This document shows positions 6,504 to 30,900 of a DNA stretch of 64,000 nt, in pieces (within the stretch, counting starts at the first letter, position 1; the number at the start of each line of letters is the position of its first letter). Source of the stretch: Thermoanaerobaculia bacterium (lineage in GTDB: Bacteria > Acidobacteriota > Thermoanaerobaculia > Gp7-AA8); the NCBI GenBank assembly GCA_041750915.1, contig JBGSYJ010000241.1, forward strand, positions 1,067 to 65,066. The letters run 5' to 3'. The notes below the pieces were generated by a model that saw nothing but the letters and a program-made list of their open reading frames with translations, did not search any database and was not told the origin of the DNA. Both the position numbers and the translations under genes were made by a program.

Positions 6504-6505
6504 CC

Positions 6506-9912: not shown

Positions 9913-10755
9913 ATGACAGAACTCGCTTGTGATCACAGCGCGCTCACCGAGATTTTCGAACTGAGGCCCGCCGACCGCGAAGCCGTCGTAGCCGGCCTTC
10001 GCCTTATGGGACGCTTCCGACTCACAACGGTCAATGTCCTCGAGGCGTATGGGCATGGACGCGCACGAATTCGCAAAGAAAAACTCGCCTTCTACAGGAA
10101 TCTTACAGGTGATCTCAACCCTATCGATGCGCCGAACGATCTCTTGCGAAAAAGCGGCATCGCCTACCATGAAGGCAGGAATGAGATCGAAGTCGGCAGC
10201 GCCGAGGCAAGGGCATTGCTTTACGAAACGAAGCTTCCCGAGGACCTCTACCACGAGTCATTCGCCTGGAACAAAGAGCGAAAAGCAGAATTCAAAAAGA
10301 TGCATCAGGAGCTACGACAGGTCTATCAGAAGCATTTCGAGAGCGTCCCCGCCGATCGCGCCAAGACAGTGGGAGACCTCACTAGATACTTTTGCGAGCG
10401 AGTCGACACATATCTCGAATTCCTGATCATTCCATTCTACGAAAGAGCCACGAATCTGACGATCACAAGGGAGAGAGCCTTAGACTTTACGAATAGGAGC
10501 ATGCCTTGGAGGCTCTTTTGGGTCAGCCGGATTCATGCTCTCTTTACTCGAAGCATTCAAGAACAGGGAAGCAGTGATCGGAAAAACGCCGGACAAGTAG
10601 ACCTCGAGTCCGCGATCTATCTTAGCTTGACACACATCTTCGTCACCGCCGACAAGGCGCAGTACGATGCCTTCATCGACATTAACGAATTCAATCCCAC
10701 AAACGCGAGAATTTACTGGTGGCCGGACATCAGGAAAGGCTTCCTAGGTATTTAG
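9913..10755 (+). CDS. Hypothetical protein (280 aa)
   Basis: ORF divergent from the previous gene and convergent with the RT gene. No recognisable motif. Confidence 0.4.
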   Translation: MTELACDHSALTEIFELRPADREAVVAGLRLMGRFRLTTVNVLEAYGHGRARIRKEKLAFYRNLTGDLNPIDAPNDLLRKSGIAYHEGRNEIEVGSAEARALLYETKLPEDLYHESFAWNKERKAEFKKMHQELRQVYQKHFESVPADRAKTVGDLTRYFCERVDTYLEFLIIPFYERATNLTITRERALDFTNRSMPWRLFWVSRIHALFTRSIQEQGSSDRKNAGQVDLESAIYLSLTHIFVTADKAQYDAFIDINEFNPTNARIYWWPDIRKGFLGI

Positions 10756-11004: not shown

Positions 11005-12054
11005 TTACCCCAGCGTCCTTTGATCATCAGGTCGCACGACCCGTCGAGATGGTAACCGCTGCTCAGGTTGCCGGTAACGATGTCGGCTCATTCGGTGGCA
11101 CTTTCGACTCTCGCCGCGGGTGGCGCGCGTTCCATGAACCGTAGCAGTGGGCAGCACTGCCGACGCCAGGCATCGAAGCGAAGCACCTTGGGCGCGATTC
11201 ACGCTCGTGACATAGCTGATCTTCCCGTTCAGCGACGCGATTTCGTAATCAAACACGGCATTCTGGCGATTTGCAAGTTCGAGTATGGAGTCGCGGATCG
11301 TGCATATCAGTTCGCGTCCAGCGGAGATTTTGCGATTGACGATGATCCCGGTCAGCTTCTGCTGCTCGCCAGCCGTCATAACGGTTACTTTTGCCGCGCG
11401 TACAGAGTGTCCCATTCTTTTCAGAGCGGCGACAGTCGGTTCGATTGCTTCCCGGGCATGTTGTCCCGAGAATGCAATGTCATCAACGTACATCGTCCAG
11501 TCAAGACCGTAGACGGAGGCGATCTTGGCGATCTCCCGATGGAGAGGAAGCAACACAAGATTCGCGAGCACGGAACTGGTCGGCGCGCCCTGGGGCAGAC
11601 GATGTTGAAATGTCGTGAGCTTCGTCATCAGATCCGCAATCTCACCTGAATACAACAAGGTGTTCCGAAAGACGTCATAGATCGCGCGGTCGTTGATGTT
11701 TGGGAAACAGCTCTTTATGTCAATCGTGACGAGCGTGGGTGCATCCACGTGCACCGCAGCATTGTCCCGTGTCGAACGCCCCTTGATTCCGCCGAGGACT
11801 TGTTCGTCGAAAGGGAGTGTTTGAAGGATCGCGTGATAAATGCGTGACTGGAGGCTTTTGAGTGCGTCAGTGGGGTTATCGATGTGGCGCCATTTGTCGC
11901 GTTCGTGGCGCCGACGATCGAAGGGTTTGTAGTACGAGCCAGCCCGTGCCGCCACTCGGCGAATGTCGGAGCGGTTCCAGTGAAGCAGGCTTTCAAGGCG
12001 TCGCATCGACACCATTGGCTCGAATTGGAAAGCCTTCGTCCGGACAAACTTCAC
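11005..12054 (-). CDS. Reverse transcriptase, retron-like clade
   Basis: NAxxH-like RDNAAVHV before motif 1. IDIKSCFPNI (motifs 1-2). LPQGAPTSSVLANLVL (motif 4, retron-type QGxPTS). YVDDIAFSG (motif 5, YxDD). QKLTGIIVN (motif 7, VTG-like). ~350 aa, with no X/maturase or endonuclease domain and no DGR TR/VR repeats nearby. Confidence 0.75.
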   Translation of the reverse strand: MKFVRTKAFQFEPMVSMRRLESLLHWNRSDIRRVAARAGSYYKPFDRRRHERDKWRHIDNPTDALKSLQSRIYHAILQTLPFDEQVLGGIKGRSTRDNAAVHVDAPTLVTIDIKSCFPNINDRAIYDVFRNTLLYSGEIADLMTKLTTFQHRLPQGAPTSSVLANLVLLPLHREIAKIASVYGLDWTMYVDDIAFSGQHAREAIEPTVAALKRMGHSVRAAKVTVMTAGEQQKLTGIIVNRKISAGRELICTIRDSILELANRQNAVFDYEIASLNGKISYVTSVNRAQGASLRCLASAVLPTATVHGTRATRGESRKCHRMSRHRYRQPEQRLPSRRVVRPDDQRTLG

Positions 12055-12347: not shown

Positions 12348-12424
12348 TCAGCCTTCCCGTGAAGCTGATCAGAGCCTCCGAACATTCGGAAGCTCAAAAC
12401 AGTCAACAGTTCGTTCGAAGCCAA

Positions 12425-12661
12425 TCACTCGCCGCTTACAACGAACGCCAGACACAACTCTCGTGCAAGGTCGTTCCACGCTTTTCGCGTCTTCCGTCGA
12501 TCGCCCACCGCTACCGCGTGGTCGACTTTCTGGAAGAGCGTTTCGAGCCTCTCCATTCGCTTCGGTTCCAATCCTCCGCGGCGGGTGATCTCCCGAAGAG
12601 AGGAGAGCATCGCCTTTGACGTCTTCTTGCTCTTCATAAAACCTCCATTTGGTTGTTTCAC
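12425..12661 (-). CDS. Small basic hypothetical protein (78 aa) upstream of the HTH-RT pair
   Basis: ORF on the same strand as the HTH and RT genes. Lys/Arg-rich. The region could alternatively be non-coding RNA. Confidence 0.25.
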   Translation of the reverse strand: MKQPNGGFMKSKKTSKAMLSSLREITRRGGLEPKRMERLETLFQKVDHAVAVGDRRKTRKAWNDLARELCLAFVVSGE

Positions 12662-13400
12662 CTGATCGCTCCGCGGCGTAATGCCGGCGGCACACAGGTC
12701 TCCCTATTGCTGTGTGGGCTTTCAGGGGCGGAGGTGGAACCGAACTGTTCTGTTCGCTGACTGGTGTCTCCCTCTTCAACGCAGCAGCTTTCACTGTCAC
12801 GACATGAAAGGGATAGACGAGACAACTGTCGTGGCATGCAGCGCGAACGCTGATGCCCACGATGGGCAGGACTCGGATGAATCCTGCGGCAACCCGAAAG
12901 TTGCCCTCAGTAGCCGGCCGTTAGGCCGACCGTGGCAACGGGCTGCAATGCAGCGCGCGCCATTACCCGACACATTCTGGGAGATGAAGAGCTTCAAAGA
13001 ACGCTACCGCGTCGCGCGGCCAAGAGAATTATCATCATCAGTTGATTAAATGTCAAGTGAGATGACTATGAGTAATGTCGCCAAGCTTGGTATTCCGGTT
13101 CCCATCGAGGGAAAGATTTGACGCAACCAGACTCTAAGTCCTGTAGAAAGTTGGGGCCTACAGAGGCCCTCGGCGACACACCGGCCGGCGCCTGGACCCT
13201 AGACTTTGAGGCTCAGTCTGGATGATCTGCGCGGGACTTCATGGGGAGTTCCAAGGCGACTCGTCAAAGATTCGCAGCGGTCCCTGTGCAGTGGTATACC
13301 GGAAGAGGATGTAAGGAACTCCGACATAAGAATGTGGTCTGAGTAGGTCGAGAGCTGGAGTGTGCAAACAGCGATCTTCCCGGATTTCGGTAGGGGGACG
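12662..13400. ncRNA. Highly structured intergenic region (multiple hairpins, 10-bp direct repeat atgcagcgcg at 12835 and 12948); candidate location for an RT-associated ncRNA (msr/msd-like) and a divergent promoter
   Basis: Hairpins read directly: cacacagg..ctgtgtg (12691-12716), cacgaca..tgtcgtg (12797-12830), ggcaac-ccgaaa-gttgcc (12888-12906), ctgtag..ctacag (13141-13163). Confidence 0.25.
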
Positions 13401-13405
13401 ACACC

Positions 13406-15355
13406 ATGGCTTCTAGAGGAGGACGGAAAGTAGGGGCTCCATCTGCAAGGCTTCCGAATAGACCTCGACAACATCAGCTCGAAACCGAGTCACGAAACGC
13501 GTTTCGTAGTGCTATACCCTCTGTGTGGGTGTTTCGAGACCTCGATCAGGATTATGGGATAGACGGCGAGGTCGAGATCTTTGAAGACTCTGGTGAAACA
13601 ACTGGTCTCAAGTTTCTCGTTCAGCTCAAGGCGACCGATCAAATTCTATCTCGTGCTCTTCGCCTTAGAGTGCGCGACTCAGCTGCCGGTTACTATTGGT
13701 CGCTGCAGCTTCCCGTTCTGATCGTTCGTTTCCACGCACCAAGTGAACGAATTTACTTTCGTTGGTTTCATTCGCTCGATCGGTACTACGGCAAAAAGTC
13801 GAAAGACGGGATGAGTTTCAAGCTGACAGATGCCGACGCGTGGGATTTACAGGCTCCTCCCAGAATTCGACGCGTAGTCAACGAATATCTCTCGGTAAAA
13901 TCCTCCCGTCTTCAGTTGCCGTTGATGATTTCCGTGTCAGTCGATGACGCCGGTATTCTAGGTATCCCGGCGCCCGGGATCATTTCGTTTTTGCAACGCC
14001 TCGCTTCAACGGTACGAGAGGTAATACGCTTCAGATGGGACGAGGAAGGCTCGAACTCCCTGATCCTTTCTAAGGAATCCCTCAGGGTCCGACTCGCGGG
14101 TGCCGATGTCTTCACGCTCCACTGGAACAATCAGAAACTGGGGCATTCCAAAGAGTCTCTTGCAAAGGATTCGTTGCTCGCCATTGCACTCTCTCTCGAC
14201 TTTTACGGCCATAGCACGTACGCGGCAACCCTGATCGCAAAGTTCGCTCACGGCTCCATTTTCGTGAGACAACTCGATATGGCCGTTGCCCTCGCCTCAG
14301 TCCTCGGAAGAGCTGGTCACACCTCATCGGCGCTCGAGATCGCTGCAGTTCTGTTCAAAGACGACCAAACGGTCGCGTCCGCACAGGCATTCACCCTGAC
14401 GTTTGTCGTCAATCAACGTGATCTCTCAGACTCGCAACTGAGTCACGGCATCCAGTTTATGCAGTTCCACGCGCAGTGCTTAGAGGATCGGGGTGTGCTG
14501 CGCGATGCAGCTGTTCTTCGCTATAACTGCGGTAGCACTCTTCGAGTCGCGAGTCGGTACCGTGAAGCCATTCGTGAATACCGCGCCGCCGCGAGGCTTG
14601 AGCCTCAGTACCTGCAGAGAAGCTATTTCTGGCGCGAGCTGGCTGGGATGTTGTTCTTGAACAGGCGATTTAATAGAGCAGTATGGGCTTACGAAAAAGC
14701 GCTTGGGCTAGAAGATGAACCGCTAGTTCGGTGTCTGCGGGCGGATGCGCAAATGTTTGCGGGTAAGTACGCGATCGCACTGCAAGCGTTCGAAGAGTGG
14801 GGCCCCCAATGTGACTCACCCGCAGATCTTGAATGGAGATTAAAAGCGATTGCCTTGAAAACGTTGATAGGGGTAGTGGGGCTTTCAGAGCAGCGCAGAT
14901 TCCCCTTGGCGGCTCAGGAAGAGTTCCAAGACAATGACACGTGCGAAGAGGCACTCGCCGATCTCGCCGGAGACGCGTTGTCGGCAAGCGCCTGGGAGCA
15001 TCTGGGTACATGCCGTGTAGATCGGCCAACTGAGGCCGGTCTGAGCCTACTCATCGTCGGACTAATCCACCCTCAACATATCCCGGCGCTAATCTCAGCA
15101 AGCTCACTCTTGAGGGACGTGAATATGGATTTGTCTTGTGAAATACTCTCATTTGCACTTCTGAAAAACCGCGAAGAAGTGAGCGACTTTCTGATTGCGC
15201 TTGGCATCACAACTGAAGAGGGGTCTGCTGATCTAAGTCGAAAGCTGGCAGAGATCATAAGAGTACTACCGGCCTTAGATGACAAGGATGTGCTTCGTTT
15301 TCACCATGATGATTTGTCATTCGATGAGATTGTGAGATATCTCGAGAAAGATTGA
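13406..15355 (+). CDS. DUF4365-like N-terminal (restriction-endonuclease-fold) domain protein with C-terminal TPR-like repeats
   Basis: N-terminal GIDGEVEIFEDSGETTGLKFLVQLKAT matches the DUF4365 pattern. The C-terminal half has TPR-like helical repeats (AIREYRAAARLEPQY..., AVWAYEKALGLEDEP). Confidence 0.45.
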   Translation: MASRGGRKVGAPSARLPNRPRQHQLETESRNAFRSAIPSVWVFRDLDQDYGIDGEVEIFEDSGETTGLKFLVQLKATDQILSRALRLRVRDSAAGYYWSLQLPVLIVRFHAPSERIYFRWFHSLDRYYGKKSKDGMSFKLTDADAWDLQAPPRIRRVVNEYLSVKSSRLQLPLMISVSVDDAGILGIPAPGIISFLQRLASTVREVIRFRWDEEGSNSLILSKESLRVRLAGADVFTLHWNNQKLGHSKESLAKDSLLAIALSLDFYGHSTYAATLIAKFAHGSIFVRQLDMAVALASVLGRAGHTSSALEIAAVLFKDDQTVASAQAFTLTFVVNQRDLSDSQLSHGIQFMQFHAQCLEDRGVLRDAAVLRYNCGSTLRVASRYREAIREYRAAARLEPQYLQRSYFWRELAGMLFLNRRFNRAVWAYEKALGLEDEPLVRCLRADAQMFAGKYAIALQAFEEWGPQCDSPADLEWRLKAIALKTLIGVVGLSEQRRFPLAAQEEFQDNDTCEEALADLAGDALSASAWEHLGTCRVDRPTEAGLSLLIVGLIHPQHIPALISASSLLRDVNMDLSCEILSFALLKNREEVSDFLIALGITTEEGSADLSRKLAEIIRVLPALDDKDVLRFHHDDLSFDEIVRYLEKD

Positions 15356-15410
15356 GAGTAGAGACAACTCTCGACATTAGACTGCTCGCAGGCAAGATTC
15401 CAAGGAACAG

Positions 15411-16226
15411 TTGCCAACAACAATGATTGATTATTCCGAGCCTGGGGCGGTTCTCTGGGCCGTTGATGATTCGGAGCTGACGATCGAAGGGAAGGCCCAC
15501 ACGCTTCTCGGCGCTGTTAGCTTCAGTCACCCGTGGCCGGTGTGCAACGGGATGGCCGAATTGCGGAACCACCTGAACCTTCCGGACGATTTTGAGTTCA
15601 AATGGAACAGCCGAATTGCGAGACCTGCAGACCGAGAGAAAGTGAGCGAGATGTTTCTCCGCATTCTGGCTCGCTCCGTCGGGGTAGTGACTGTCGTTGA
15701 AGGCCGTGACCATCAGAAAGGAGCTGAATTGCTGGCGCAGCAGATCGCCGATTTTCAGCAGCCAAGGACTGCGTCCCTGGCATTAATGGACAACGGGATC
15801 GTCAAGAAGCCGTTCGAGTTTCGTCGATTTCTTAATCAGTCCACAGACGACAACCTTCGCTACTTTCAGTTTGCGAGCGTCGACTCGTCACTCAACGACC
15901 TGATCCAATGTGCAGATATTTTTGCGGGCTTCCTCGCACTCAAAATCAAACTCGCGCTCAACATTGTGAAAGACCGCACGATCACCGACGATGAAGGGGA
16001 GCTATCCCTCTCTTCAGTGATTGAATTCTCTCTACGATACGTCATCTGGGGGGCTCGTAACGAGGTCGCGTTTGATTGGGATAATCAGACCGAGTCGCCT
16101 CCACCCGAGTTTTGGATTAAATATGCGAAGGGTTTCGGCCTGAGAATTCACTCTTCCGTCTCGGAGCACGTGCTCGAAAGGGTTTACTCGCAGGCAGGAA
16201 CCTTCTACATGGGCTGCTTGCATTAG
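15411..16226 (+). CDS. DUF3800-like protein
   Basis: 271 aa. The N-terminal acidic motif WAVDDSE and the C-terminal LIQCADIFAGF (QxxD) resemble the two DUF3800 signature motifs. Confidence 0.4.
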   Translation: MPTTMIDYSEPGAVLWAVDDSELTIEGKAHTLLGAVSFSHPWPVCNGMAELRNHLNLPDDFEFKWNSRIARPADREKVSEMFLRILARSVGVVTVVEGRDHQKGAELLAQQIADFQQPRTASLALMDNGIVKKPFEFRRFLNQSTDDNLRYFQFASVDSSLNDLIQCADIFAGFLALKIKLALNIVKDRTITDDEGELSLSSVIEFSLRYVIWGARNEVAFDWDNQTESPPPEFWIKYAKGFGLRIHSSVSEHVLERVYSQAGTFYMGCLH

Positions 16227-16347
16227 CATCGGCTTACCACTCTGCTACAAGCCTCCACATAACCGCAAACCTTTACGTTGAACAAGTCGCTGATTACGTG
16301 CGCTAGTAAGTAGAAACGTTTCGCACGATACGAAGTACCATGGACAC

Positions 16348-17310
16348 ATGGCAAAACGAGACTTCGTTGCCGAAATTCTCCAACGTCGCGGTAGGTCGAA
16401 ACATAGCTTTGCGGTAGGCAACCTGTTCCGCCGAATGCTTCGACTGGAGATCGCTTTCGATCAGTCAGGCACGATTGATCCCGAAATGATGCGTTATTTT
16501 CCGATAGCGATCGTGGCTTGTATGGAGAGCTTCTTTCGTGCCACGATCAGCGAGTTGATCGACGCGGGCGAGCCGTACACTAACCGACTCGACGAGTTCG
16601 AAAATATGAAGGTGGAGCCCTCGGTGATCAGGGCGATCCACGGGCAGAGGATCACTGCAGGAGAATTTGTCAGCCACCTGGTTCCGATAAACTCGCTGGA
16701 AGATATAGATCGTTCGATCTCGGTTCTAGTAAACGATGACTTCATAAAACGCGTGAAGACTGTTCGGGACCGCTGGGCGATCGAGGTCGAGGGTCAGTTG
16801 GATGCGCCGATTATTGTGGATCCGGGGAAGATAATCGCGGGAGTGAAAGAGGCGTTTCGGATTCGGCACATTCTTGCCCATGAGTTTTCGAATGACGAGA
16901 CGTTGTTCGACCGGACAATGATCGAAGAATCCTTTCGATGTTCGACGACATTCCTGCGCGCAGCGTCTGCGGTCATAAACGAGATTCGCTTTCCCGGCTC
17001 ACCACTCACGCAACTTGCGATGAACGAAAAATCCGCCGATGACTTTGCAACCGCTGATGCTGCGCTAAACGACGCCGTATCAGCACTGAATGAGCTGCTT
17101 GAGAGTGAAGAGCAAAAACTTTTGGCTACAGGGCAGTCAGCGTGGGAAATCACTCGGAACACCACCGCTACCATTGGCGCCAATCTACAAGGGAAGGGAG
17201 GCACAATCTGGCCAGTGCTCTACTATAGTCTCGCTCGAAGTCTCACCGCTACTCGGATGGAAGAGATTCGACACGTGATCGGCATCCATGAGTCGATGCG
17301 GCAGAACTGA
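16348..17310 (+). CDS. Two-domain hypothetical: N-terminal region with a possible HEPN-like Rx6H motif (RIRHILAH), C-terminal DUF1311 (LprI-like) domain
   Basis: The C-terminal segment ADAALNDAVSALNELL...QSAWEITRN...GGTIWPV...LTATRMEEI follows the DUF1311 pattern (ADxxLNxxY, QxAWxxxR, GGS/T). The N-terminal HEPN call is weak. Confidence 0.4.
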   Translation: MAKRDFVAEILQRRGRSKHSFAVGNLFRRMLRLEIAFDQSGTIDPEMMRYFPIAIVACMESFFRATISELIDAGEPYTNRLDEFENMKVEPSVIRAIHGQRITAGEFVSHLVPINSLEDIDRSISVLVNDDFIKRVKTVRDRWAIEVEGQLDAPIIVDPGKIIAGVKEAFRIRHILAHEFSNDETLFDRTMIEESFRCSTTFLRAASAVINEIRFPGSPLTQLAMNEKSADDFATADAALNDAVSALNELLESEEQKLLATGQSAWEITRNTTATIGANLQGKGGTIWPVLYYSLARSLTATRMEEIRHVIGIHESMRQN

Positions 17311-17665
17311 CGCGTCGGCCGAGGATCCGAACTATCGGCGCTGTAAATGAAACTCGACTGCTAACGATTCAGTTCGGTGGACTGATGATGGGCTTGTCTC
17401 GCAATAGCAAAGCTCCAGCTATCCGCGATGCTATTACCTACAACGCGATAATCTGGTGGCCGGGGTAGGCTTGGTCCCAAAAGTCTAGGCGAGCGGCATG
17501 TTTACCGATGTTCAGTTTCAAGTCGAAGTGTCGGACATCCCCCCATCGGTCGCGAATCGTCATCGTGAACTCGAACTGGCTAGGGTGTGGCGTTGGAATA
17601 CTTGTGGGCGCAACAAATGTGTCGCCCGATGGCAAAGTACTCGGGTGCCACGTTGAACCGGGCAT

Positions 17666-18014: not shown

Positions 18015-19760
18015 CTAATCGAAAGCTATCCCGAGCAGACGGCCAGATGGCTCCAGGTCAGTTAGGCGAGTCGGGATCCGCCCTTCCAGGAAGTCCCCGC
18101 CGAGGAGCGCGGTCGGGAATTCGTCAGAGTTCATTGCGCACAGGTACTGAAATCCAAATCTCGCCGATTTGGCGGCCGCCAGCTCGAGCGCGAGCGCCTT
18201 CTGCCTCTCATCAACACCCTCAAAGATGGTGCTGTCGTGAATGAGCATGCCCGGCGCCTGGCTGTGGTCGGACCACAGTTCAGCGAGCATCAAATCGAAG
18301 CAGAACATGGCCATGTTCTCGACGCCGGCAGCATCCTTCCGGGGCATTTGCCAGCCGAAGAAGAAGCCATTGCTTCGGCTCTCGATGATGAATGACCCCG
18401 CCTGGCCGTAAAGATATTGGGTGTTCTCGAAAAAAATGCCGAGGATCTTCTCCCTTTGCAGGCGCAATTCAGAGAGGCTGAGTCGTGTCAGCTGTTGGAG
18501 GCGTGCTTCATCGACCTTCAGTGCGTCACGGCCCTCCGTGAACTTACGAATGTTCTCAAGCCGCTGCTCGACGTCCTTTAGCTGCGTGACTGTAGCGACA
18601 TGAAGCTGCTGCAGCTTCATGTACTCGTCCAGGGCGCCGTGGCTCTGCAACACTGTGAGGAGTTCCGCGCGCTCATCGCTCAGCCGCCGAATCTCCGCAG
18701 TACGCTCCGCGACTGACGCCTTCAAGCGCGCCATTTCGGTTGACAGAAACGCCCGTCGATCCTCGATGACACCTCGGTGGAAGTCTCGGACCTCATCGAA
18801 GCGCTTCAGGACGACGTCTGGAAGTTCGACGGACGCTGCCTCGTAGGCGCGTCGAATTTCCGTTTCACCGGGGTCCACTTCGATTTTCAGACTCTCCGCG
18901 TAATTCTGCAGGAGCCTCGTCTCGGTGAAGTTCGTGTCCGTGAGCTTCTGCAATGAGGCGGTGATGACGTTCGCTCGCCGCTCGATGTCTTCATACTGAG
19001 GATGAACCTTGAACGACTTGAGCCCAGATTCTTCGTCGCGAAGTCGCATCTGGAGTTTCACCCGGTCTGCCTCAAGTTGACCCTCTGATCCGAGTACGTT
19101 GTTGAGAAGCCCTGCGCCAGCCGCTTTTCTCAACTTTTGCAGGAGGGCTTCCTGCTCTTTGTGGAGCTTCCACTCGACTGCGGTCTGCCACGAGAGGCCA
19201 AGAAGGAATGCGATGTTGATGCGTGACTCGTACGATCCCTGCTTTCTATGCGTCTCAAACGGGCTTGCATACGCGTCTTTACCGACACGCACGAAGTAAG
19301 GGAACAGATTCCGAAAGGTCGGCTGATGAGCGACCGGATCGTCTACCGACAGCCCGAACATTAGCTGCCCGAGGACCCGCACCCATTCGTCGATCTTCAG
19401 AAAAGGGCCGTGCAAGAGGGTGTCCGCATGCGGTCGAATCGGAAACCACGAGGTGTCACCCGCAAAAATGACTTTGGCTGGCTCCGAGGTCGCGCGCGTG
19501 ACCGAGAACGTCCGTCCGCGGAGAACGACATCGAGTGTGAACTCCCAGCCTTCCAGCGCAAACTTCAGCAATCCCTTGTCCTTTGTCGTACTCGCGCCGA
19601 GGCAAAAGTGAATGATCTGGAGCAAGGTCGTCTTGCCCAAGCCATTGCGCGAGTCCTTTTCGGTGGACCTTTCGGTCCGATCCGCTAGGAGGACGTTGAA
19701 ATCTCCGCGAAGGGCGACCGTCCGGAATCCCGCGTTATTCGCCCTGATCTTGGCGATCAC
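18015..19760 (-). CDS. ABC/SMC-like ATPase with long coiled coil (Lamassu LmuB / ABC-3C ATPase-like)
   Basis: N-terminal Walker A NGLGKTTLLQII. ~300-aa coiled-coil middle rich in E/R/L heptads. C-terminal Walker B/D-loop region MLIHDSTIFEGVD. Its start overlaps the upstream small ORF. Confidence 0.6.
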   Translation of the reverse strand: MIAKIRANNAGFRTVALRGDFNVLLADRTERSTEKDSRNGLGKTTLLQIIHFCLGASTTKDKGLLKFALEGWEFTLDVVLRGRTFSVTRATSEPAKVIFAGDTSWFPIRPHADTLLHGPFLKIDEWVRVLGQLMFGLSVDDPVAHQPTFRNLFPYFVRVGKDAYASPFETHRKQGSYESRINIAFLLGLSWQTAVEWKLHKEQEALLQKLRKAAGAGLLNNVLGSEGQLEADRVKLQMRLRDEESGLKSFKVHPQYEDIERRANVITASLQKLTDTNFTETRLLQNYAESLKIEVDPGETEIRRAYEAASVELPDVVLKRFDEVRDFHRGVIEDRRAFLSTEMARLKASVAERTAEIRRLSDERAELLTVLQSHGALDEYMKLQQLHVATVTQLKDVEQRLENIRKFTEGRDALKVDEARLQQLTRLSLSELRLQREKILGIFFENTQYLYGQAGSFIIESRSNGFFFGWQMPRKDAAGVENMAMFCFDLMLAELWSDHSQAPGMLIHDSTIFEGVDERQKALALELAAAKSARFGFQYLCAMNSDEFPTALLGGDFLEGRIPTRLTDLEPSGRLLGIAFD

Positions 19761-19986
19761 GTGCCGAGGCCCTCTGAAGCTTCCCGTTCAACAACTCGAC
19801 GGCACCAACGGCGAAGAGAAAACTGACCGCCACCGTGAACCGGTTGAAGTTCTCTAGTTCGTGAATTTTTCGCGCGCTCTCCCAGAGCGATGAGACCGTT
19901 CGGGGCTGAGAAAGCTGCTTCAAGATCAGCGCTCCCATCCCAACAACAGATCGACGCGGCGTAATGTGCTTGTCGGGCAGAATCAC
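19735..19986 (-). CDS. Small middle-component-like protein (83 aa) between the effector and the ATPase
   Basis: Start overlaps the stop of the HNH gene (ATGA at 19983-19986). The end overlaps the ATPase start. Confidence 0.45.
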   Translation of the reverse strand: MILPDKHITPRRSVVGMGALILKQLSQPRTVSSLWESARKIHELENFNRFTVAVSFLFAVGAVELLNGKLQRASARDRQDQGE

Positions 19987-20753
19987 GGCTCGAAGACCTC
20001 ACACAGTTCAAACAAGTAGGAAAGAACCGCCTGGCCGGCTGCACGCCGAGAGCTGCCCGCCAATACTCCACCCGACGCGATCACCGAGAGTCGTTCGAAC
20101 AGATCGTCACCCTTCACTCCATCGTGCAGGAGTGCGTAATAGTGCTTACGGAAACCAAATTTCAGCCGGTCGGGGAAGGTCGAATCATTCGAGGTCTCCG
20201 CCGACACATAGTCCCGGACCCTTGAAGCGATGGAGATTCCATTCGTGAGTGCGAGCCGTGTGATACCTGAGAGCTCGTTCTTCAACATCTTCGCGTCGAT
20301 CTCGGTCCGTGTCAGCGTTCCTGGTGCCTGCTCGACCGCGGGATCGGCAACGAAACGCTCGCAGACGGCATCGAGTTCCGCGAAGGTCACGTCGGCTGTC
20401 GCCAAGTTTCGGACCGCCGCGATCTTTTCCTCCATCGCGCGCTTCATCACCCTCAGCGAATCAACGGGATGGGACTTGGGTGCCTTGTCTACTTGGGTGT
20501 GGTGATTTGGGCACAGCAGAATCAGATTCTCAGGTGCGTTCTTCTTCGCGATGGGGATCTTGGCGCCCTTCACGCCCCGCGGGCCCTCATCCGCGAGAGG
20601 GTAGACGTGCGCAGTCTCGTAAAGGTGAATGTCGCCGTCGGCGGGCGTCGGTTGGTCGAGGATCTTGTTGCACCCACCGAAGTTGCATATCCCTGCCGAA
20701 CGCGCGATCACGATCAGCTTTATCTTGGTTGGAACCTCGGCTTGTCTTGTCAT
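19983..20753 (-). CDS. HNH endonuclease-domain protein with C-terminal helical domain (candidate effector of the ABC ATPase system)
   Basis: GICNFGGCNK...AHVYPLADEGPRG...NLILLCPNHHTQVD has the CxxC...H...N...CPNHH HNH zinc-finger nuclease signature. It is the first gene of a three-gene overlapping operon. Confidence 0.65.
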   Translation of the reverse strand: MTRQAEVPTKIKLIVIARSAGICNFGGCNKILDQPTPADGDIHLYETAHVYPLADEGPRGVKGAKIPIAKKNAPENLILLCPNHHTQVDKAPKSHPVDSLRVMKRAMEEKIAAVRNLATADVTFAELDAVCERFVADPAVEQAPGTLTRTEIDAKMLKNELSGITRLALTNGISIASRVRDYVSAETSNDSTFPDRLKFGFRKHYYALLHDGVKGDDLFERLSVIASGGVLAGSSRRAAGQAVLSYLFELCEVFEP

Positions 20754-22615: not shown

Positions 22616-23818
22616 GTTGACCCGGTTTCGTGGACACCTGACCATTAGGGAGAGGAGTCACGATGCCGAGGACACGAAAAGCGTATGCAGCAGAGGCGAC
22701 CCAGTTCCGAATCGACTGCGCCGACGGCTCGAACCTTCGACTTAGCTCTTCTGGCGTTTGACCCTTCCGAACCAACTCCAGGGTCGGCGGAGCGACGGGC
22801 TGACCAGCGACGAGCGGGACGAGCTCACGCGCCTGCGACGTGAGAACCGCCGGCTGGAAGAAGAGCGGGAGATAGTGTCAAAAGCCGCGGCCTGGTTCGC
22901 TCAGGAGACGCAGAAGAAGCCGAACGGATCTTCAGAGCAAATCAGGCCTTTCATTCGATCGCTGCGATGTGCCGTGTACTGGAAGTCTCCACCAGCGGGT
23001 ACTACGCATGGCGAGGTCGTCTCGAGTCGACCAGAGCAAAGGAAGACGAAAAGCTGCAGCAAAGGATCAAAGCAATTCACACGTGGTCCCGAGGAACCTA
23101 CGGGGCTCCACGCGTGCATGCGGAGTTGAAGGACGAAGGGACGCTAGTGGGATGCAAGCGCGTGGCTCGCCTGATGAAAGCGGGCGGGATTGTGGGCGTA
23201 AGCCGGCGAAAATGGACCGTAACGACGCGACGAGATCCGGCCGCACGTCCGGCTCCTGATCTGGTCGATCGCAGCTTCAAAGCCGAACGACCGAATCAGC
23301 TATGGGTGGCGGACATCACGTATGTCCCGACCCTGACGGGGTTCCTCTACCTGGCCGTAGTTCTGGATGTATCGAGCAGGAAGATCGTCGGCTGGGCGAT
23401 GCAGAGGCATCTTCGAACCTCGCTCGTGCTCGATGCGCTGGAAATGGCAGTGGAACAGCGTCGTCCGGATGCAGGGCTAATTCACCACTCGGATCAGGGC
23501 TGCCAGTACACCGCGATCGGCTTCGGACAACGATGCAAGCAAGCGGGCATCCGACCCTCGATGGGATCGGTTGGCGACTGCTACGACAACGCCATGTGCG
23601 AGAGCTTCTTCGCCACGCTCGAATGTGAGCTTATCGATCGAACGCGCTTCATGAATCACTCAGAAGCCCGTGCGGCGATCTTCGATTTCATTGAAGGCTG
23701 ATACAACCCGCATCGTCGTCACTCTAGTCTCGCATATCATTCGCCTGTGAATTTCGAACGGATCGAGCAGATGTCTGCCTGATCCCAAGCTGTGAACCGT
23801 CCACGAAACCGGGGTAGC
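22616..23818 (+). mobile_element. IS3-family insertion sequence, degenerate (OrfA internally deleted or frameshifted; OrfB has a premature TGA replacing the conserved Trp of the GWYNP motif)
   Basis: The OrfA start MPRTRKAYAAE at 22663 runs into a stop after ~32 aa, then resumes in another frame with the IS3 leucine-zipper LTRLRRENRRLEEEREIVSKAAAWFA. OrfB (22967..23701) has a DDE integrase core (WVADITYV...HHSDQGCQYT...DCYDNAMCESFF). Its terminal IEG-stop-YNPHRRHSSLAYHSPVNFE continues in frame. Terminal inverted repeats cccggtttcgtggac (22621-22635) and gtccacgaaaccggg (23800-23814). Confidence 0.8.
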
Positions 23819-24151
23819 CTCAGACACCGGCTACCATCAGCACGAAGATGCTTGGCTTATCTTCTGTACGATCGATTCGGCGGGGCGCACTGGTCACGAT
23901 TATCCGAACAGATTCGATGGAAACGATCTCCCCCTGACCACCTCGTAACACACCACCGCCGCCGGGGTCCGGGTTCCCGACCCCCTGCTACCCTTGCTGA
24001 TCTTCCATCTGAAACGAAGCTGGCAATTCGTAAACTTTCGTTCTAGAGTTCCACGAGCAGCGCAATTTTGTGCCGCACGTATGTCGCCTGGCGAGCGGTT
24101 TACGATCAGCGAATCATCGGGGCCAATGCTCTTATTGAGGAGGGAAAGAAT

Positions 24152-24706
24152 ATGGCGAACAATAATAAAAGCGCGTCACACGTCTCCATTGATACCACCA
24201 GCTTCCCTAATGCGCGCGCGATGGCGTTGAGCGCCGGTGACATCAACCAAGCGGTAAGACGACGAGTAGGGGACATCCTAACGGCCAATCGAAATAACAT
24301 TCTAAAGGCGTTCCCCCAAGGTTTAAAGGAACTCGTTGATATGGGTGCGATCTCCGCTAATGAATCCCAGACATTGAGCAAGATTCTGAAGCTCATCATC
24401 GACGTCGACAGAGATCGTGCCGATCCCGAAGATGCCTTTCTTGCAATCAGAACCCTGTACCACGAGCTGATAGTGGACCAGCGGTCCACTCCGGTTGCAT
24501 TGGCGATTGCGGGGGTTGCGAGCTCATCGTTCAGTCTCGAGAAGAATAGCCCTCTGAAAGTCAATAAGATTGCCGGCGCAGGAGGCGCAATAGCTGGTGC
24601 GGTAACTGGAGCCGGAATTGGATTCGGTATTGGGGGGCCCATCGGCGGAGCTATTGGTGGCGTCATCGGCGGAGCTGTGGGCGCCACAGTCGGACTGTGC
24701 GGTTAG
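24152..24706 (+). CDS. Glycine-zipper (GxxxG-repeat) C-terminal domain protein, bacteriocin/membrane-toxin-like
   Basis: Strong RBS (gaggagggaaag) before the ATG at 24152. C-terminal GAGGAIAGAVTGAGIGFGIGGPIGGAIGGVIGGAVGATVG is a glycine-zipper membrane motif. Confidence 0.5.
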   Translation: MANNNKSASHVSIDTTSFPNARAMALSAGDINQAVRRRVGDILTANRNNILKAFPQGLKELVDMGAISANESQTLSKILKLIIDVDRDRADPEDAFLAIRTLYHELIVDQRSTPVALAIAGVASSSFSLEKNSPLKVNKIAGAGGAIAGAVTGAGIGFGIGGPIGGAIGGVIGGAVGATVGLCG

Positions 24707-25909: not shown

Positions 25910-26107
25910 TCACTCTTCGTCGACGATCGCGGGTTTCTTGATTGCTTCCGAGTAGCGCTCAAGTTCTGCGGCGAGGTCTTCTATAGACTCAGCACGCGGG
26001 AACACCGGCGTCTCAGTCCATCCAGTGACACGTCCGGTGTCGTCGTAAAACACCTCATGTATCGCGAACTCTCCGGCTCGTTCAACTACCCTGTAGTTCC
26101 AGCTCAC
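25910..26107 (-). CDS. Small immunity candidate (65 aa) for the Rhs C-terminal toxin; HicB/UPF0150-like antitoxin fold suspected
   Basis: Immediately follows the Rhs gene (stop/start adjacent at 26104-26107). NYRVVERAGEFAIHEVFYDDTGRVTGWTETP...IEDLAAELERYSEAIKK resembles HicB-type small antitoxins. Confidence 0.45.
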   Translation of the reverse strand: MSWNYRVVERAGEFAIHEVFYDDTGRVTGWTETPVFPRAESIEDLAAELERYSEAIKKPAIVDEE

Positions 26108-27999
26108 TTATGGTAATCCTTGAATTCTTTGATGATGACTTGTTCGTTCTCAATCTTGTAGATGACCCGTACGGCCCCCCGACCTTTTCCCGATCCTGGC
26201 AAATCAACTGCGGACCAGCCCTTTAGGTCGCCCTTGAGGGCATGCTGATTCTTTCCGGAAAGTCCTGAAGCGAGCATACCCTTTATCTGCTCGTATCCTT
26301 CTCGCTGTTTCCCCCTTAGCGCATCACCTTGTTTGGCGGCACCCGCTTCTTCCACTACAGTCATCATCCTCCGGGTACCTGTCCCGGCTACACGCTGAAT
26401 GAGGCCGCCTACCGCTGGCACGGCGGGTAGAACCAACGCAGCACCGTCAAATGACGCTATGACAAACTTCGCGCCGGCGTCGACAACGTTCGGGAGTGTC
26501 GGCTGCTCTCTTGCTTTGAAAAACGCCGCCGTCCAGGCTTTCGACGAATGGTCATATGACATGACGTCGAGTGCTTCCCATGGAAACCCCCACCTGCCCG
26601 TCGGGTCGATCTTGTTGATCGGATTGTTACGGACATACGAATACATGTTCCAACTCTGCGGCTGGCTCATGTCCCAGTCTTTGCCCGGATCGACGGACAA
26701 AAACCGTCCCAGATTCGGGTTGTAGTACCTCGCGTGCATGTAGTCGAGGTAGTCGACGTTCTCCGCGTAGAGGCCGCCGTGGTAGTCGCGCTCGTGGCCG
26801 GTGAACTGGCGGTCCACCTTTTCGTAGTTCCGTACCGCCATCTGCGTGATCGCGCTCGCTTCCTGGCCGAACGGGTAGTAGTCGTTCTGCGAGAGCTGCT
26901 CGCGGTTCGCGTTCGTGATCTGCCGCGGCGTCCCGAGGTGGTCGAGGTGGTAGTGCAGCCGCCCTCCCTCATTCTCCTCCCGCTGCGCGGCCAACAGAGC
27001 GCTCCCGCGGTACATCGTGTCCTCGGTCCAGAACCAGATCATCGTTGCATGCGTACCGGCGAAGCTCTCGTACTTCCGCTGTACCTTGCCTTCGAGATCG
27101 CGCACCGTCCAGGTCCACAGGCCCTGTCCGTTGTCCTTCGTGCCGATCCGCTCGTCGTCCGCCGTGTAGATGTAGTAGATCTGCTGGCCCCACGCTCCCG
27201 TCAGCTCCCGCATCATGTTCACCGGGTCGAAGTGATAGCTCTTCGTCCCGTTGAACGTCATATTCCCCGCGCCGTCGTAGCTCACCGCGCCGCTGAGCCG
27301 GTTGTTCGCGCTGTTCACTCCGATCGCACCGGGCGACTTGGCACTGTTCGCAGTGCCGGTGCGGCTCGTCATATTGCCGAATGAGTCGTAGCCGTACGTC
27401 TCGGTGACCGGCCCGTTCATCGTCGGAAAGGTCGCTGTCTTCAAGCGGCTCATCCGGTCGTACGTGTAGGACTGCTGCGTCCCGATCGCCGTGATGTTCC
27501 CCACCCCGTCGTAGCTGTACGCGCCCGAGCTCCAGTTCGCGGGGCTCGAGGTCGGATCGATGTTGCTCGACGCCTGCACCGATGAGCTCTCCGACGCTCC
27601 GGAGCGCTGATGGATTGCAACCGCTTCGTCCACCGGCATGACCCGCTGGAGGTACTTTACGTTCGGGTTGTTTCGCAGTCCATTGACTGCCTGCTCCGGA
27701 ATCCGGATCGCGACGCGGTTGCCCCATTCGGCATCCACCGTCGCTCCCGAGGCCGCAAAGTCGGGCCGCTGCGTGCCCTTCTTCGTCTCGAGCACCACGA
27801 TGTACTTGGCTTGCCCGGGCGCTGCCTGTGGCTGGAGCTCGGTGGCAGGTGATGCGTCACTCGCTGACACTCCGGGCGCGAGCAGCCCTATGCACAGCAG
27901 GCACATCAGCATCACTCGCCCGAGTTTCCCACTCGAGGCTCCGGCTCTTCTGCCAGGCGTGTTCATCTTGTTCTTCTCATTCATGGCGGGGCTCCTCAT
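26104..27999 (-). CDS. Secreted Rhs/YD-repeat protein with Rhs core end (RYYNPNLGRFLSVDP...NNPINKIDPTGRW) and a C-terminal YoeB/RelE-fold toxin domain
   Basis: YD repeats (YTYDRMSRL, YGYDSFGNM, VSYDGAGNM). Conserved Rhs C-terminal motifs. The final ~60 aa, HALKGDLKGWSAVDL...GAVRVIYKIENEQVIIKEFKDYHK, align to the YoeB/Txe (RelE superfamily) C-terminus including the terminal YH. Signal-peptide-like MLMCLLCIGLLAPGVSA near the N-terminus. Alternative starts at 27984 and 28053. Confidence 0.7.
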   Translation of the reverse strand: MRSPAMNEKNKMNTPGRRAGASSGKLGRVMLMCLLCIGLLAPGVSASDASPATELQPQAAPGQAKYIVVLETKKGTQRPDFAASGATVDAEWGNRVAIRIPEQAVNGLRNNPNVKYLQRVMPVDEAVAIHQRSGASESSSVQASSNIDPTSSPANWSSGAYSYDGVGNITAIGTQQSYTYDRMSRLKTATFPTMNGPVTETYGYDSFGNMTSRTGTANSAKSPGAIGVNSANNRLSGAVSYDGAGNMTFNGTKSYHFDPVNMMRELTGAWGQQIYYIYTADDERIGTKDNGQGLWTWTVRDLEGKVQRKYESFAGTHATMIWFWTEDTMYRGSALLAAQREENEGGRLHYHLDHLGTPRQITNANREQLSQNDYYPFGQEASAITQMAVRNYEKVDRQFTGHERDYHGGLYAENVDYLDYMHARYYNPNLGRFLSVDPGKDWDMSQPQSWNMYSYVRNNPINKIDPTGRWGFPWEALDVMSYDHSSKAWTAAFFKAREQPTLPNVVDAGAKFVIASFDGAALVLPAVPAVGGLIQRVAGTGTRRMMTVVEEAGAAKQGDALRGKQREGYEQIKGMLASGLSGKNQHALKGDLKGWSAVDLPGSGKGRGAVRVIYKIENEQVIIKEFKDYHK

Positions 28000-30900
28000 C
28001 ACTGCACCTGGATCGCGAGGTTCGGCGTGTAGTCCCCGAACCAGGCCACCCACTCATGAATCATCAGCCACTGGAAATTGTAGCTGCCCGCCGTCGCCGG
28101 CGCCGTCACATTGAACGTGAACGTGTGGTTTGCTCCCGGTGCGACCGACACCCCGGACGGAACGTTCACGCGGTTCAGGCCCCACCTGGTGTTGTCCTGC
28201 GGGTTCATCGAACCGAGCCGGAACTCATTCGTCACCCAGGTACTCGTGCCGCTGTTGGTGAGCGTAATCGAAACCTGGTAGGTCTGCCCCCGCGTCATCG
28301 TCATCGGCACCGACTGCGACACGAATGTCGACCGGTCGATGTTCGGCGCGACGTTGATTACGAGGTTCGGCGTATAGGCACCAAACCAGGCTACCCACTC
28401 GTGGATCATCAGCCACTGGAAGTTGTAATCGCCCACGGTCGATGGCGCGGTGACGTTGAAATTGAACGTATGGTTCGATCCGGGCGGCACGGAGACTCCA
28501 GCCGGAACGTTCACCCGGTTCAGCCCCCATCTGGTATTGTCCTGCGGATTCATCGACCCGAGACGGAAGTCGTTCGTGACCCAGGTGCTCGTGCCGCTGT
28601 TGTTCAGTGTGATGGAGACCGGATACGTCTGCCCCGGAATCATCGCCGAAGGAACGGATTGCGAAACGAACGTCGACCCATCGACGGGAGCTGCTGGCGC
28701 GGAGACCGCCACCACGACATTTGGTGTGTAAGCGCCGAACCACGCGACCCACTCGTGAATCATGAGCCATTGAAAGTTGTAGTTTCCTGCCGTCGAGGGT
28801 GCGGTCACGTTGAACGTGAACGTATGGTTCGCGCCTGGCAGAACCGAGGTTCCCGCGGGCACGTTCACCCGATTGAGTCCCCATCTTGTATTGTCCTGAG
28901 GGTTCATCGAGCCGAGACGGTACTCGTTGGTCACCCAGGTGTTCGTACCGCTGTTCTTGAGCGTGACCGACACCGAGTAGGTCTGCCCGGCAACCATGGA
29001 GGTGGGCACCGATTGCGAAACGAAGGTCGAGTTGTCTGGTATTACTGCCTGCCATGAGAGCTTTGCCACCGCTCCGCCGGCAGCCTCGAAGTACTCCATC
29101 ACGACCGTGTGGTTACCTGCCGTCAGGCTGATGTCAGCGGTATAGCTCGTCGGAGCCTGCGGGATCCATTTATCGATTCTCAGCACCCCATCGACATACA
29201 GCCGTACTCCGTCGTCGGTGGTCGTCGTGAATCTGTACGTCCCCGCCGCGAACGAAATCGTTCGCGTCCAGCGCGCCGAGAAGTTGTCAGCGGGAATACC
29301 GCAGGCCGAACTCGGGCTTCCCACTCCCCAGTCGAAGTTCAGGTCGCCCGCACCATCGTCGCGAACCAACACAGGCGAACCGGTCAGTCCCGTGTTGTTG
29401 AAATAGTCACCCTTCCATCGATCTGCTGCGACAGAAGCGGTGCAGTTACTGCTCACGACATTCACGGGAACATTGGTGCTCGACGCCCCGAACCATTCTA
29501 TGAATTCCCGCACCATCCTCCACTGGAAGTTGTAGGTTCCGGGAGTCGTCGGTGCAGTGACGTTGAACGTAAACGTACGGTCGGTATTTGGCGGAACCGT
29601 TGTACCGTCAGGGATCAGAACTCGCTTGAGTCCCCAGGTCATATTATCGAGCGGGTTGGCGGATCCGAGTTTGTAATCCTCCGCCGCCGTCCAGGTCGAG
29701 CTTCCACTGTTTCTCATTGTCACAGAGACTGCGTACGTCTGTCCGGGTGTCATCGTCGCCGGCACGCTCTGCGAAATGAACGTCGCGCCGTTCGCAAGCG
29801 ACTGGGTAATGGTTGCGAGGTTGCTGAAGACGGATCCGGTCGTCGTCGTGCTCGAGGGCGAAACGAGCTCGTCTCCCATACTGGACTTCGCAACGCTGTT
29901 CCCGGATGTGGAGCCACAGGCATTCGTAATCCGGACCCAGTAACTCGTCGGTTGAGTAGGCGTGACATCGAGATAAGGAACATTCGTTCCAAGAGGAATC
30001 GTTCTGTCACCCAACGGGCCCTGATACCACTGATAGCTGAGTGTTCCATTGCCGGAAGCCGTGACGGTCAGCCGTGTCGTGGTGCCGGCAGGGACCGACT
30101 TGCTCTGCGGCTGCTGCGTGATGGTCGGCGGGGCGCACGCGAGGCCCCCAGAGAATGTGATCTGGGACGGGCGGGGCATCCCGTGAGGATCGGCGAACTG
30201 ATCCGTCCTCACACCATTGCCGTGGTCGATCGATTTGAGCATGCCGCTAGGGTGATAGCCGATGTCGGACGCGAGCGTTGGAACGATGCTGAAGCCGGCG
30301 TTCCCAGTGGCTGAAATGGACTTGAGAAGTCCCCGCTGATAGGTGTTTGATACTGAGGCGACCGAGCTCTGGCCGCACTCGACTCCTGGAAGAATGCAGG
30401 TGGGGTATGTGAGGCTCGTTGCTCCCCCGAGTGGATCATAGGCAAACGACTGCTGGAACTTCTGGACAACGGAGTTGTCCTTCTTCACTTCCGTGAGCTT
30501 GACTGTCGCACGGCCGGCATCGTCCTGATAGAGGTACTGTTCGGTGACGATCGCGGTTCCGAATGTGGGACCGTAGTTGTGACGGATTGCGTGCGTGAGT
30601 TTTCCGCGGCTGCGGTCGCCGGGGCCTGCGCCTGCCCCGAAAACAAACTGCTTGAGGTCGCGAAACGACGTTGGTGCATTCGGATTTCTGCTTCGAACAT
30701 TCGTGAGCCGTTCCGCCGAATCGTAGGCGTACTGAAGGTCGAAGGTAGCGTAGTTGTAGCCGGGAGGAGGAACGGTCACGTTCGGCCAGGGCGCGTTCGG
30801 AAAGGTTCGCGATCCGGCGTGTCCCCGAGCATCGTATGAACCGTGCTGAATCTGTCCCGTCTCGGGATGCGTTTCGCTGGTCAGGAATCCGCGAAGGTCG

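Follow-up and report, generated by a model that had tools for sequence, protein, structure and literature searches.

A probable HNH-armed operon of the ABC-3C/short type II Lamassu superfamily, with DUF2326, MC6 and CTD10 components, in a Thermoanaerobaculia genome

ABC-three component (ABC-3C) systems were reportedly first described in 2020 by Krishnan and colleagues, in a work whose content is carried in part by the Pfam MC1-8 and CTD families and by the papers that cite it. In reviews and structural papers ABC-3C is treated as the same thing as type II Lamassu, in which a repair machine of the Rad50/SbcC type has become an immune sensor whose killing domains can be exchanged. In the Lamassu systems of Vibrio and Salmonella it was shown that an LmuA1-LmuB2-LmuC1 complex sequesters the C-terminal domain of LmuA at the distal coiled coils, that the complex binds DNA ends, and that released LmuA tetramerises, which activates the nuclease. 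Detailed dissection has covered only the Cap4-nuclease and lipase versions of Lamassu. The listed types of LmuA/ABC-3C effector include an HNH N-terminal domain (PMC10586767; PMC12663957 section 5; PMC12738770 discussion), and a review from the Gruber laboratory places an HNH superfamily nuclease among the LmuA N-terminal domains. Haudiquet et al. (PNAS 2025) describe effectors of the HNH, SMEK and lipase kinds as specific to short Lamassu, give short LmuB as about 600 residues with a Walker B of hhhhD[Q/S/T/E] and zero to two zinc hooks, and state that ABC-3C profiles were included in the DefenseFinder 2025 Lamassu models. Here we examine a three-gene locus in a Thermoanaerobaculia bacterium (contig JBGSYJ010000241.1 of assembly GCA_041750915.1); the window is the whole stretch of 64,000 nucleotides (nt) that was analysed. 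A preliminary description of this DNA had read the locus as an effector, a small middle component and an SMC-like ATPase of the Lamassu type II/ABC-3C kind, a reading that our analysis bears out. The locus is quite probably an intact operon of the ABC-3C/short type II Lamassu superfamily, within a lineage that combines a DUF2326 (YydD-like) ATPase with MC6 and C-terminal domain 10 (CTD10) and here carries an HNH effector. The family assignment, taken by itself, is very likely correct.

The operon is compact, 2.7 kb, and consists of three consecutive minus-strand open reading frames (ORFs), whose coordinates and sizes (256, 83 and 581 amino acids), as first proposed, were reproduced in an ORF list of the 14-25 kb region:

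19983 to 20753, minus strand: effector gene (LmuA-like, PDC-M68A), ATG start, 256 residues, with an N-terminal HNH nuclease and ABC-3C CTD10
19735 to 19986, minus strand: middle-component gene (LmuC-like), GTG start, 83 residues, ABC-3C MC6 with N-terminal MILPxKH
18015 to 19760, minus strand: ATPase gene (LmuB-like; DUF2326, YydD family, PDC-M68B), GTG start, 581 residues

The stop codon of the effector gene overlaps the start codon of the middle-component gene by 4 nt (GTGA), and the middle component overlaps the ATPase by 26 nt, an overlap that is identical in the two closest relatives. These relatives, found in public assemblies, are the nearest in the databases and differ from the window by 22-26% in protein (74-78% identity), and the lengths of their middle-component and ATPase genes equal those of the window. 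When the window was compared with the two, nonsynonymous differences per site (pN) were 0.11-0.23 over all three genes and synonymous differences (pS) 0.69-0.78; for the middle component alone the values were 0.11-0.13 and 0.74-0.76. Since pN is well below pS in each case, all three genes, including the 83-residue ORF, are genuine coding genes under purifying selection. A 354-residue gene directly upstream of the trio in one relative (L083) was considered as a fourth component and rejected, as neither the window nor another relative (L082) has a counterpart of it. Downstream of the operon the sole terminator-like site, at 17622-17635, has a weak stem of 5 bp, and the rate of such sites was lower than expected by chance.

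The match of the locus to described families is far beyond chance, with Pfam and PADLOC E-values down to 5e-178, an MC6 match at 4.6e-15 and pN below pS. Searches with PADLOC and family HMMs, which the preliminary description had proposed, matched the ATPase to PDC-M68B (E 4.9e-178, residues 1-580, model of 581 positions) and the effector, over its full length, to PDC-M68A (E 7.4e-65, residues 2-255, model of 253 positions), so that adjacent genes match the two halves of one PADLOC candidate system. In Pfam the ATPase matched DUF2326 (4.8e-29) and the middle component scored 55.8 bits with MC6, for which the gathering score is 27.2. The locus thus has a coiled-coil Rad50-like ABC ATPase, a small MC-family gene in between, and an effector with a variable N-terminal enzyme and a family C-terminal domain, as is characteristic of ABC-3C. 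Database names for the ATPase homologues are "YydD (DUF2326 family)", given to many of them by JGI, and "ABC-three component system protein", given in UniRef and NCBI. It had been noted that assignment of the ATPase to a non-defence SMC, RecN or RecF family would speak against the reading; the NCBIfam scan of all three proteins gave no match and no equivalog, and the partners of the ATPase are MC6 and an HNH-CTD10 protein. The earlier suggestion of a candidate variant system holds for the class of defence system and does not hold for the novelty of the HNH effector, which is an already listed type. RefSeq/PGAP already annotates the same trio on a conjugative plasmid of Pseudomonas psychrotolerans, and novelty is small, as Pfam, PADLOC, RefSeq and the literature already contain the architecture, all the domain families and the HNH variant. 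As a discovery the locus therefore adds little, its likely role having been catalogued as well, reportedly also in the 2025 DefenseFinder Lamassu models.

The ATPase could be divided into three parts:

19191 to 19760, minus strand: N-terminal half of the ATPase head, residues 1-190, with Walker A G40-L-G-K43-T-T and Q-loop Q174 (from invariant columns, motif counts in 200 sequences and model secondary structure)
18408 to 19190, minus strand: antiparallel coiled-coil arm, residues about 191-451, turning at H374-G375 within (T/S)HGALxEY (from the model and motif counts)
18015 to 18407, minus strand: C-terminal half of the ATPase head and stop codon, residues 452-581, with the signature region, Walker B LIHD509-S510, DERQ and NSD (from motif counts; Pfam DUF2326 covers residues 447-580)

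Motif conservation was counted over 200 aligned homologue sequences. The N-terminal Walker A and the C-terminal Walker B-like LIHDS seen in the preliminary description are both present and are conserved across this set. The Walker A of the window reads SRNGLGKTT, with K43, for a family consensus of SRNGLGK[ST]T, and the Walker B follows the pattern hhhHDS, in which D509 and S510 are invariant (200/200). Q174 and the (T/S)HGALxEY motif at the apex of the coiled coil are conserved, and DERQ and NSD are near-invariant. Any CxxC was found in just 3 of the 200 homologues, indicating that the family is without a zinc hook. In an AlphaFold2 (AF2) model (predicted local distance difference test score, pLDDT, 81.5) the ABC head is bipartite (1-190 and 452-581) and is split by a helical hairpin arm turning at 374-375, the Rad50-like split head and coiled coil that structure prediction had been expected to reveal. 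The coiled coil itself was correctly foreseen, its length less so, as it spans about 260 residues in the model rather than about 300 (helices 191-215, 226-248, 256-293, 315-373, 376-431 and 433-451). A weak Pfam match to CTD10 inside the ATPase (residues 294-385) was put down to the general similarity of helical or coiled-coil sequences. When the model was compared with the PDB using Foldseek, the best match was 9a6c_A, an integrative model of Bacillus subtilis YydD-YydB (E 2.4e-25, TM score 0.58, 17% identity), followed by the LmuB chains 9nyg_B, 9hqx_B and 9hqu_A from Lamassu complexes of V. cholerae and S. enterica (E 2-8e-12). The LmuB chains are thus the best experimentally solved matches, behind the integrative YydD model; Escherichia coli SbcC (6e-10) came after them, and then Rad50, SMC, JetC and others.

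The effector was found to be composed of two domains:

20391 to 20753, minus strand: HNH nuclease domain of the Cap5/SPARHA clade, residues about 1-121, with a helix at residues 9-18, zinc ligands C23, C28, C81 and H85, catalytic H49, and N76, H84 and D89
19986 to 20384, minus strand: all-helical C-terminal domain CTD10, residues about 124-256, ending in an invariant LFExCEVFE

The HNH motif first described as CxxC...H...N...CPNHH was confirmed as an HNH nuclease, its residues being invariant across homologues (C23, C28, H49, R59, N76, C81, H85 and D89); the first zinc pair is Cx4C (CNFGGC, C23 and C28) and not CxxC. Pfam HNH_2 matched at 1e-6, and in PADLOC the HNH half was strongly similar (about 1e-25) to the SAVED-HNH effectors of CBASS. 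The closest solved HNH by sequence, with a family profile searched against the PDB, was 9om4_A (2.1e-38), an entry code that occurs in the SPARHA paper. The AF2 model (pLDDT 84.8) contains the HNH domain and a C-terminal domain of seven helices, and it matches the HNH domains of Cap5 and SPARHA and, more weakly, the C-terminal domain of LmuA. The features of the Cap5/SPARHA clade were all found: a His-Me finger, a CCCH zinc site, the catalytic His together with Asn and His, and a dimerisation helix at the N-terminus. The helical C-terminal domain, which had been taken as unknown, appears to belong to a described family, ABC-3C CTD10; its Pfam score (2e-5, 25.5 bits) is just below the gathering score of 28.1, and the assignment is supported by the family alignment and by relatives that exceed the threshold, both in precomputed Pfam data and, with 42.3 bits, in the case of L037. 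CTD10 is presumed to be the docking and oligomerisation module of the effector.

The middle component carries the invariant N-terminal motif MILPxKH, and P4, K6, G18, W35, F50 and G68 are invariant in its alignment. In a genome scan with one genome per GTDB species, 258 relatives were returned and 80 loci were kept for counts, these coming from many bacterial phyla and from nine archaeal metagenome-assembled genomes (MAGs). In 78 of the 80 loci the gene immediately upstream of the ATPase encodes an MC6 homologue, with both exceptions on truncated contigs, and so the 83-residue ORF, whose conservation had been held to be decisive, is conserved. In 76/80 a CTD10-bearing gene of the same orientation is found up to 4 kb upstream, as a rule immediately upstream of the middle component, and in 54/80 this gene carries an HNH domain; the synteny of the HNH gene with the ATPase, on which the first reading had also depended, is therefore preserved in related genomes. 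Overlaps of 4 nt between genes are typical among these loci. In addition, an HMMER scan of 1.84 billion cluster representatives returned 586 ATPase clusters at E <= 1e-30. The HNH-armed DUF2326/MC6/CTD10 lineage is widespread in bacteria, in archaea and on plasmids, with the window locus a clean example, and the locus bears on whether a sequester-release-oligomerise logic applies to HNH effectors in a lineage without a hook, and on what rare substitutions in the ATPase signature motif may do.

The N-terminus of the effector was found to be swapped while CTD10 is kept, for a PNP_UDP_1 phosphorylase, for about 100 unassigned residues in cyanobacteria, or in longer forms of 385-476 residues. Such swapping against a constant CTD10 is a hallmark of ABC-3C/Lamassu modularity. 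In a Gemmatales MAG (L040:4296-5726) a PNP_UDP_1 nucleoside phosphorylase is fused to CTD10, and from its sequence this would be a variant of the system directed at nucleotides or nucleosides. Cyanobacterial effectors of about 200-217 residues were seen in L002-L006, L013, L015, L016, L018, L020, L021, L023, L028, L031, L037, L038, L049, L053 and L055 (e.g. L003:5106-5738). These loci retain MC6, the ATPase and CTD10, and their approximately 100 N-terminal residues are without a recognisable enzyme domain. They have either a small effector of a new kind or the form lacking an effector that is mentioned, as "clade O", for short Lamassu. The archaeal loci (L008, L010, L017, L027, L058, L061, L063, L065 and L076) come from Methanothrix, Methanoperedens, Methanophagales, Heimdallarchaeota, Aenigmatarchaeota, Woesearchaeota and Nanoarchaeota. 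A PNAS survey of complete RefSeq genomes reported Lamassu in just seven archaeal genomes.

Like the candidate system PDC-M68 and ABC-3C in general, the locus has the same families for its three proteins, the same gene order, overlapping genes and full-length PADLOC matches; there is no architectural difference, and the window copy is set apart by its divergence and by two rare substitutions, S477A and K484A, in the ATPase. With short type II Lamassu (DdmABC of V. cholerae, LmuACB of S. enterica) it shares an effector made of an N-terminal enzyme and a helical C-terminal domain, a small middle gene, and an SMC-like ATPase of about 600 residues with a Walker B of hhhhD[Q/S/T/E], in which the zinc hook may be absent. 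The validated Lamassu systems have Cap4 or lipase effectors with partners of the MC3/CTD7 type, whereas the window has HNH, MC6 and CTD10, a shorter middle component (83 residues) and marginal sequence similarity to LmuB. In B. subtilis YydB-YydC-YydD, YydD is both the DUF2326 namesake and the top structural match, and in the integrative PDB model the ATPase contacts the effector; the 481-residue YydB chain gave a weak, partial match to the window effector (E 1.7 over 139 columns). YydB is presumably a metallophosphoesterase and not an HNH nuclease. In CBASS Cap5 and in SPARHA HNH-APAZ, the HNH domain is governed by SAVED, responding to cyclic nucleotides, or by APAZ-pAgo, responding to a guide-target duplex, whereas in the window their place is taken by CTD10, which would dock to an SMC-like ATPase. 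Septu also pairs an ABC-type ATPase (PtuA) with an HNH nuclease (PtuB), and no PADLOC Septu match, to PtuA or to PtuB, was found in the operon proteins.

Several observations weigh against placing the locus with Lamassu or against its being a working defence system. The length of 581 residues and the Walker B LIHDS fit short LmuB, but the PADLOC LmuB model (PDLC03859) gave only a weak match (best E 4.5e-11, 40.6 bits), and the LmuB chains found with Foldseek have 13-15% identity and a TM score of about 0.39, a remote similarity. A sequence-profile search of the PDB with the ATPase gave nothing meaningful and no LmuB match, so that within the PDB the link between the ATPase and LmuB comes from the fold comparison. 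The same search with the middle component found no solved relative, and the stoichiometry and the geometry of sequestration are thus extrapolated. Furthermore, the ABC signature region of the ATPase reads AAGVENM in the window and SxGxxxMK in the family. At residue 477 the window has Ala, as do 7 of the 200 homologues, in place of the Ser found in 193/200; at residue 484, after the conserved Met, it has Ala, as do 5/200, in place of the Lys found in 191/200. The changes are located at 18336-18344 and 18315-18317 (residues 475-485, codons 477, 478 and 484). Loss of the signature serine and lysine could alter ATP-dependent engagement of the heads, and these substitutions are the only feature of the locus that is slightly out of the ordinary. 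A promoter scan found no sigma-70-like promoter upstream of the operon. In the literature we found no paper naming PDC-M68 and no published experimental test of the DUF2326/MC6/CTD10-HNH lineage, and the PADLOC PDC families are described as mostly unvalidated candidates; reports on DUF2326 in the literature were genome and transcriptome studies in which the family is not characterised. PADLOC candidates are nominated by guilt-by-embedding. When the genes adjoining the operons of relatives (97 ORFs at 55 loci, L001-L055) were searched with PADLOC, the top families were the endonuclease and specificity subunits of type I restriction-modification (R-M), with three members each, and the presence of such subunits beside some relatives fits this manner of nomination. 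The "HNH short Lamassu" clade of Haudiquet et al. (PNAS 2025) may be exactly the DUF2326/MC6 lineage, and the window ATPase agrees in length, Walker B and hook range with what that paper gives for short LmuB.

Sequence and predicted fold show the 581-residue protein to be an ABC ATPase of the Rad50/LmuB kind, its head divided by the coiled coil, the 256-residue protein a Cap5/SPARHA-type HNH DNase fused to a helical C-terminal domain of the LmuA type, and the 83-residue protein an ABC-3C middle component. The HNH domains of Cap5 and SPARHA were shown to be activated by tetramerisation through an N-terminal helix, and the window effector keeps this helix (residues 9-18 in the model). Combining this with the sequestration seen in Lamassu, we propose a monomeric HNH-CTD10 effector held by (ATPase)2-MC6. 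By analogy with the Vibrio and Salmonella systems, two ATPase protomers and one middle component would clamp the C-terminal domain of the effector, keeping it monomeric and inactive. The ATPase heads may then sense an invading phage or plasmid by its DNA ends or its replication intermediates, upon which the coiled coils would rearrange and free the effector. Freed effectors would oligomerise, probably as tetramers as in Cap5, SPARHA and LmuA, by way of their C-terminal domain and the HNH domain's N-terminal helix; composite HNH active sites would form and cut DNA without sequence specificity, and the infected cell would die or arrest in abortive infection, or the plasmid would be eliminated. 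We consider the details of this mechanism to be somewhat likelier to be right than wrong.

It is also possible that the complex mainly serves competition among mobile elements, excluding or eliminating plasmids as DdmABC does or stabilising its carrier, rather than defence against phages. Homologues were found on 67 plasmids, of which 28 are conjugative, and none was found in 50,697 phage records. In P. psychrotolerans (L084, NZ_CP102430.1, 5037-7746) the trio lies within the conjugation region of the plasmid, directly downstream of the genes for a MobF relaxase and a type IV coupling protein, and this location points to a part in the competition or establishment of plasmids. Lamassu and DdmABC are known to act on plasmids, and the window has an IS3 transposase at a distance of 2 kb from the trio. 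The two relatives at 74-78% identity are found in unrelated neighbourhoods, one adjoining yajC/tgt and PycTM/DUF4407/DDE_3 genes and the other adjoining guanylate-cyclase-domain and Shedu-like SduA_C genes, and the trio thus moves as a cassette. Nonetheless, a role between elements is compatible with phage defence, since both activities are seen in validated Lamassu systems; the majority of the 80 loci are on chromosomes, and several lie beside type I R-M, Pycsar-like or Shedu-like genes, as in anti-phage islands. We therefore regard a mainly inter-element function as unlikely.

Another view is that the DUF2326/MC6/CTD10 lineage is a mechanistically separate branch of SMC-like immunity and not just another Lamassu. 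The lack of a zinc hook, the invariant (T/S)HGALxEY apex, the much smaller middle component and the unusually high frequency in archaea (9/80) would point this way. If it were so, the loss of the signature Ser and Lys would hint at a sensor without canonical ATP-driven head engagement, or at a trigger other than DNA ends. This seems rather doubtful to us.

The three proteins might instead form a stable holo-nuclease in the style of SbcCD/Mre11-Rad50 or Septu PtuAB, which cuts the DNA of the invader as an assembled complex, without release, oligomerisation or killing of the host. The fold of the ATPase also matches DNA-bound heads of SbcC and Rad50, HNH partners of ABC ATPases are known in Septu and in type I-A retrons, and in the crosslinking-based model 9a6c YydD is bound to the effector YydB. 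However, the HNH domain belongs to the Cap5/SPARHA clade, in which activation requires tetramerisation, and CTD10 resembles, if more weakly, the C-terminal domain of LmuA, the oligomerisation module that is sequestered in Lamassu. The absence of a PADLOC Septu match and the existence of interchangeable effectors that are not nucleases, such as the phosphorylase, also argue for a generic logic of release and killing. Assembled cutting is for these reasons quite improbable.

Since S477A and K484A are confined to the small subclade of the window, it could be supposed that this copy has decayed, its heads being unable to engage and the system inert or locked. The substitutions are, however, common to relatives that differ by 22-26% in protein and are under purifying selection, pN is far below pS, and the other motifs and the three frames are intact; a working variant is thus indicated, and we judge decay to be very improbable. 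A housekeeping or DNA-repair SMC-like module of the RecN, RecF or SbcCD kind, lying near mobile DNA by chance, would share the general Rad50/SMC fold, but it is scarcely credible given the lack of an NCBIfam equivalog and of an Mre11/SbcD partner, the patchy spread over bacteria and archaea with the closest relatives in unrelated contexts, the plasmid carriage, the variable effector domains and the matches to PADLOC candidate models.

The operon, read as an ABC-3C/short type II Lamassu system, sits in an island of defence genes and mobile elements, which in the window comprises the following:

3915 to 8775, plus strand: complete type I R-M system, hsdR (862 residues), hsdM (477 residues) and hsdS (279 residues, a short specificity subunit)
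11005 to 12054, minus strand: retron-type reverse transcriptase (PADLOC RT_VI 8.6e-66; Pfam RVT_1)
13406 to 15355, plus strand: protein of 649 residues with DUF4365 (restriction-endonuclease-like) and TPR, with a weak PADLOC Aga_REase match
22758 to 23701, plus strand: IS3-family transposase, orfA and an rve-domain orfB (244 residues, possibly truncated)
26104 to 33605, minus strand: RHS-repeat protein with PA14 and Ig-like domains (1868 residues), then a second RHS protein (649 residues)
39467 to 43406, minus strand: UvrD-like helicase domains over two overlapping ORFs (39467-40450 and 40374-41405) and a 542-residue protein with a cytidine/dCMP-deaminase domain

The IS3 element fits a mobile or variable island. 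Rfam, at the gathering threshold, and ARAGORN found no RNA across the whole window, and Rfam therefore gave no non-coding RNA near the retron-type reverse transcriptase. The ORFs that flank this gene, at 12369-12860 (minus strand), 9913-10755 (plus strand) and 8910-9731 (minus strand), had no family match and could be its effector or accessory genes. The DUF4365-TPR gene is followed on the same strand by genes for a 271-residue protein with weak similarity to DUF3800 and a 320-residue protein with an LprI-like C-terminal domain, and the three (13406-17310, plus strand) may be an uncharacterised defence cassette. The RHS region looks like a polymorphic-toxin locus. The region at 39467-43406 may be another defence module, in which the split of the UvrD-like ORFs may be due to a frameshift or a mis-called start. 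Finally, an ORF of 212 residues at 24068-24706 on the plus strand, without a family match, has a glycine-rich hydrophobic C-terminal tail, GAGGAIAGAVTGAGIGFGIGGPIGGAIGGVIGGAVG, and in its sequence resembles a putative glycine-zipper membrane toxin or bacteriocin.

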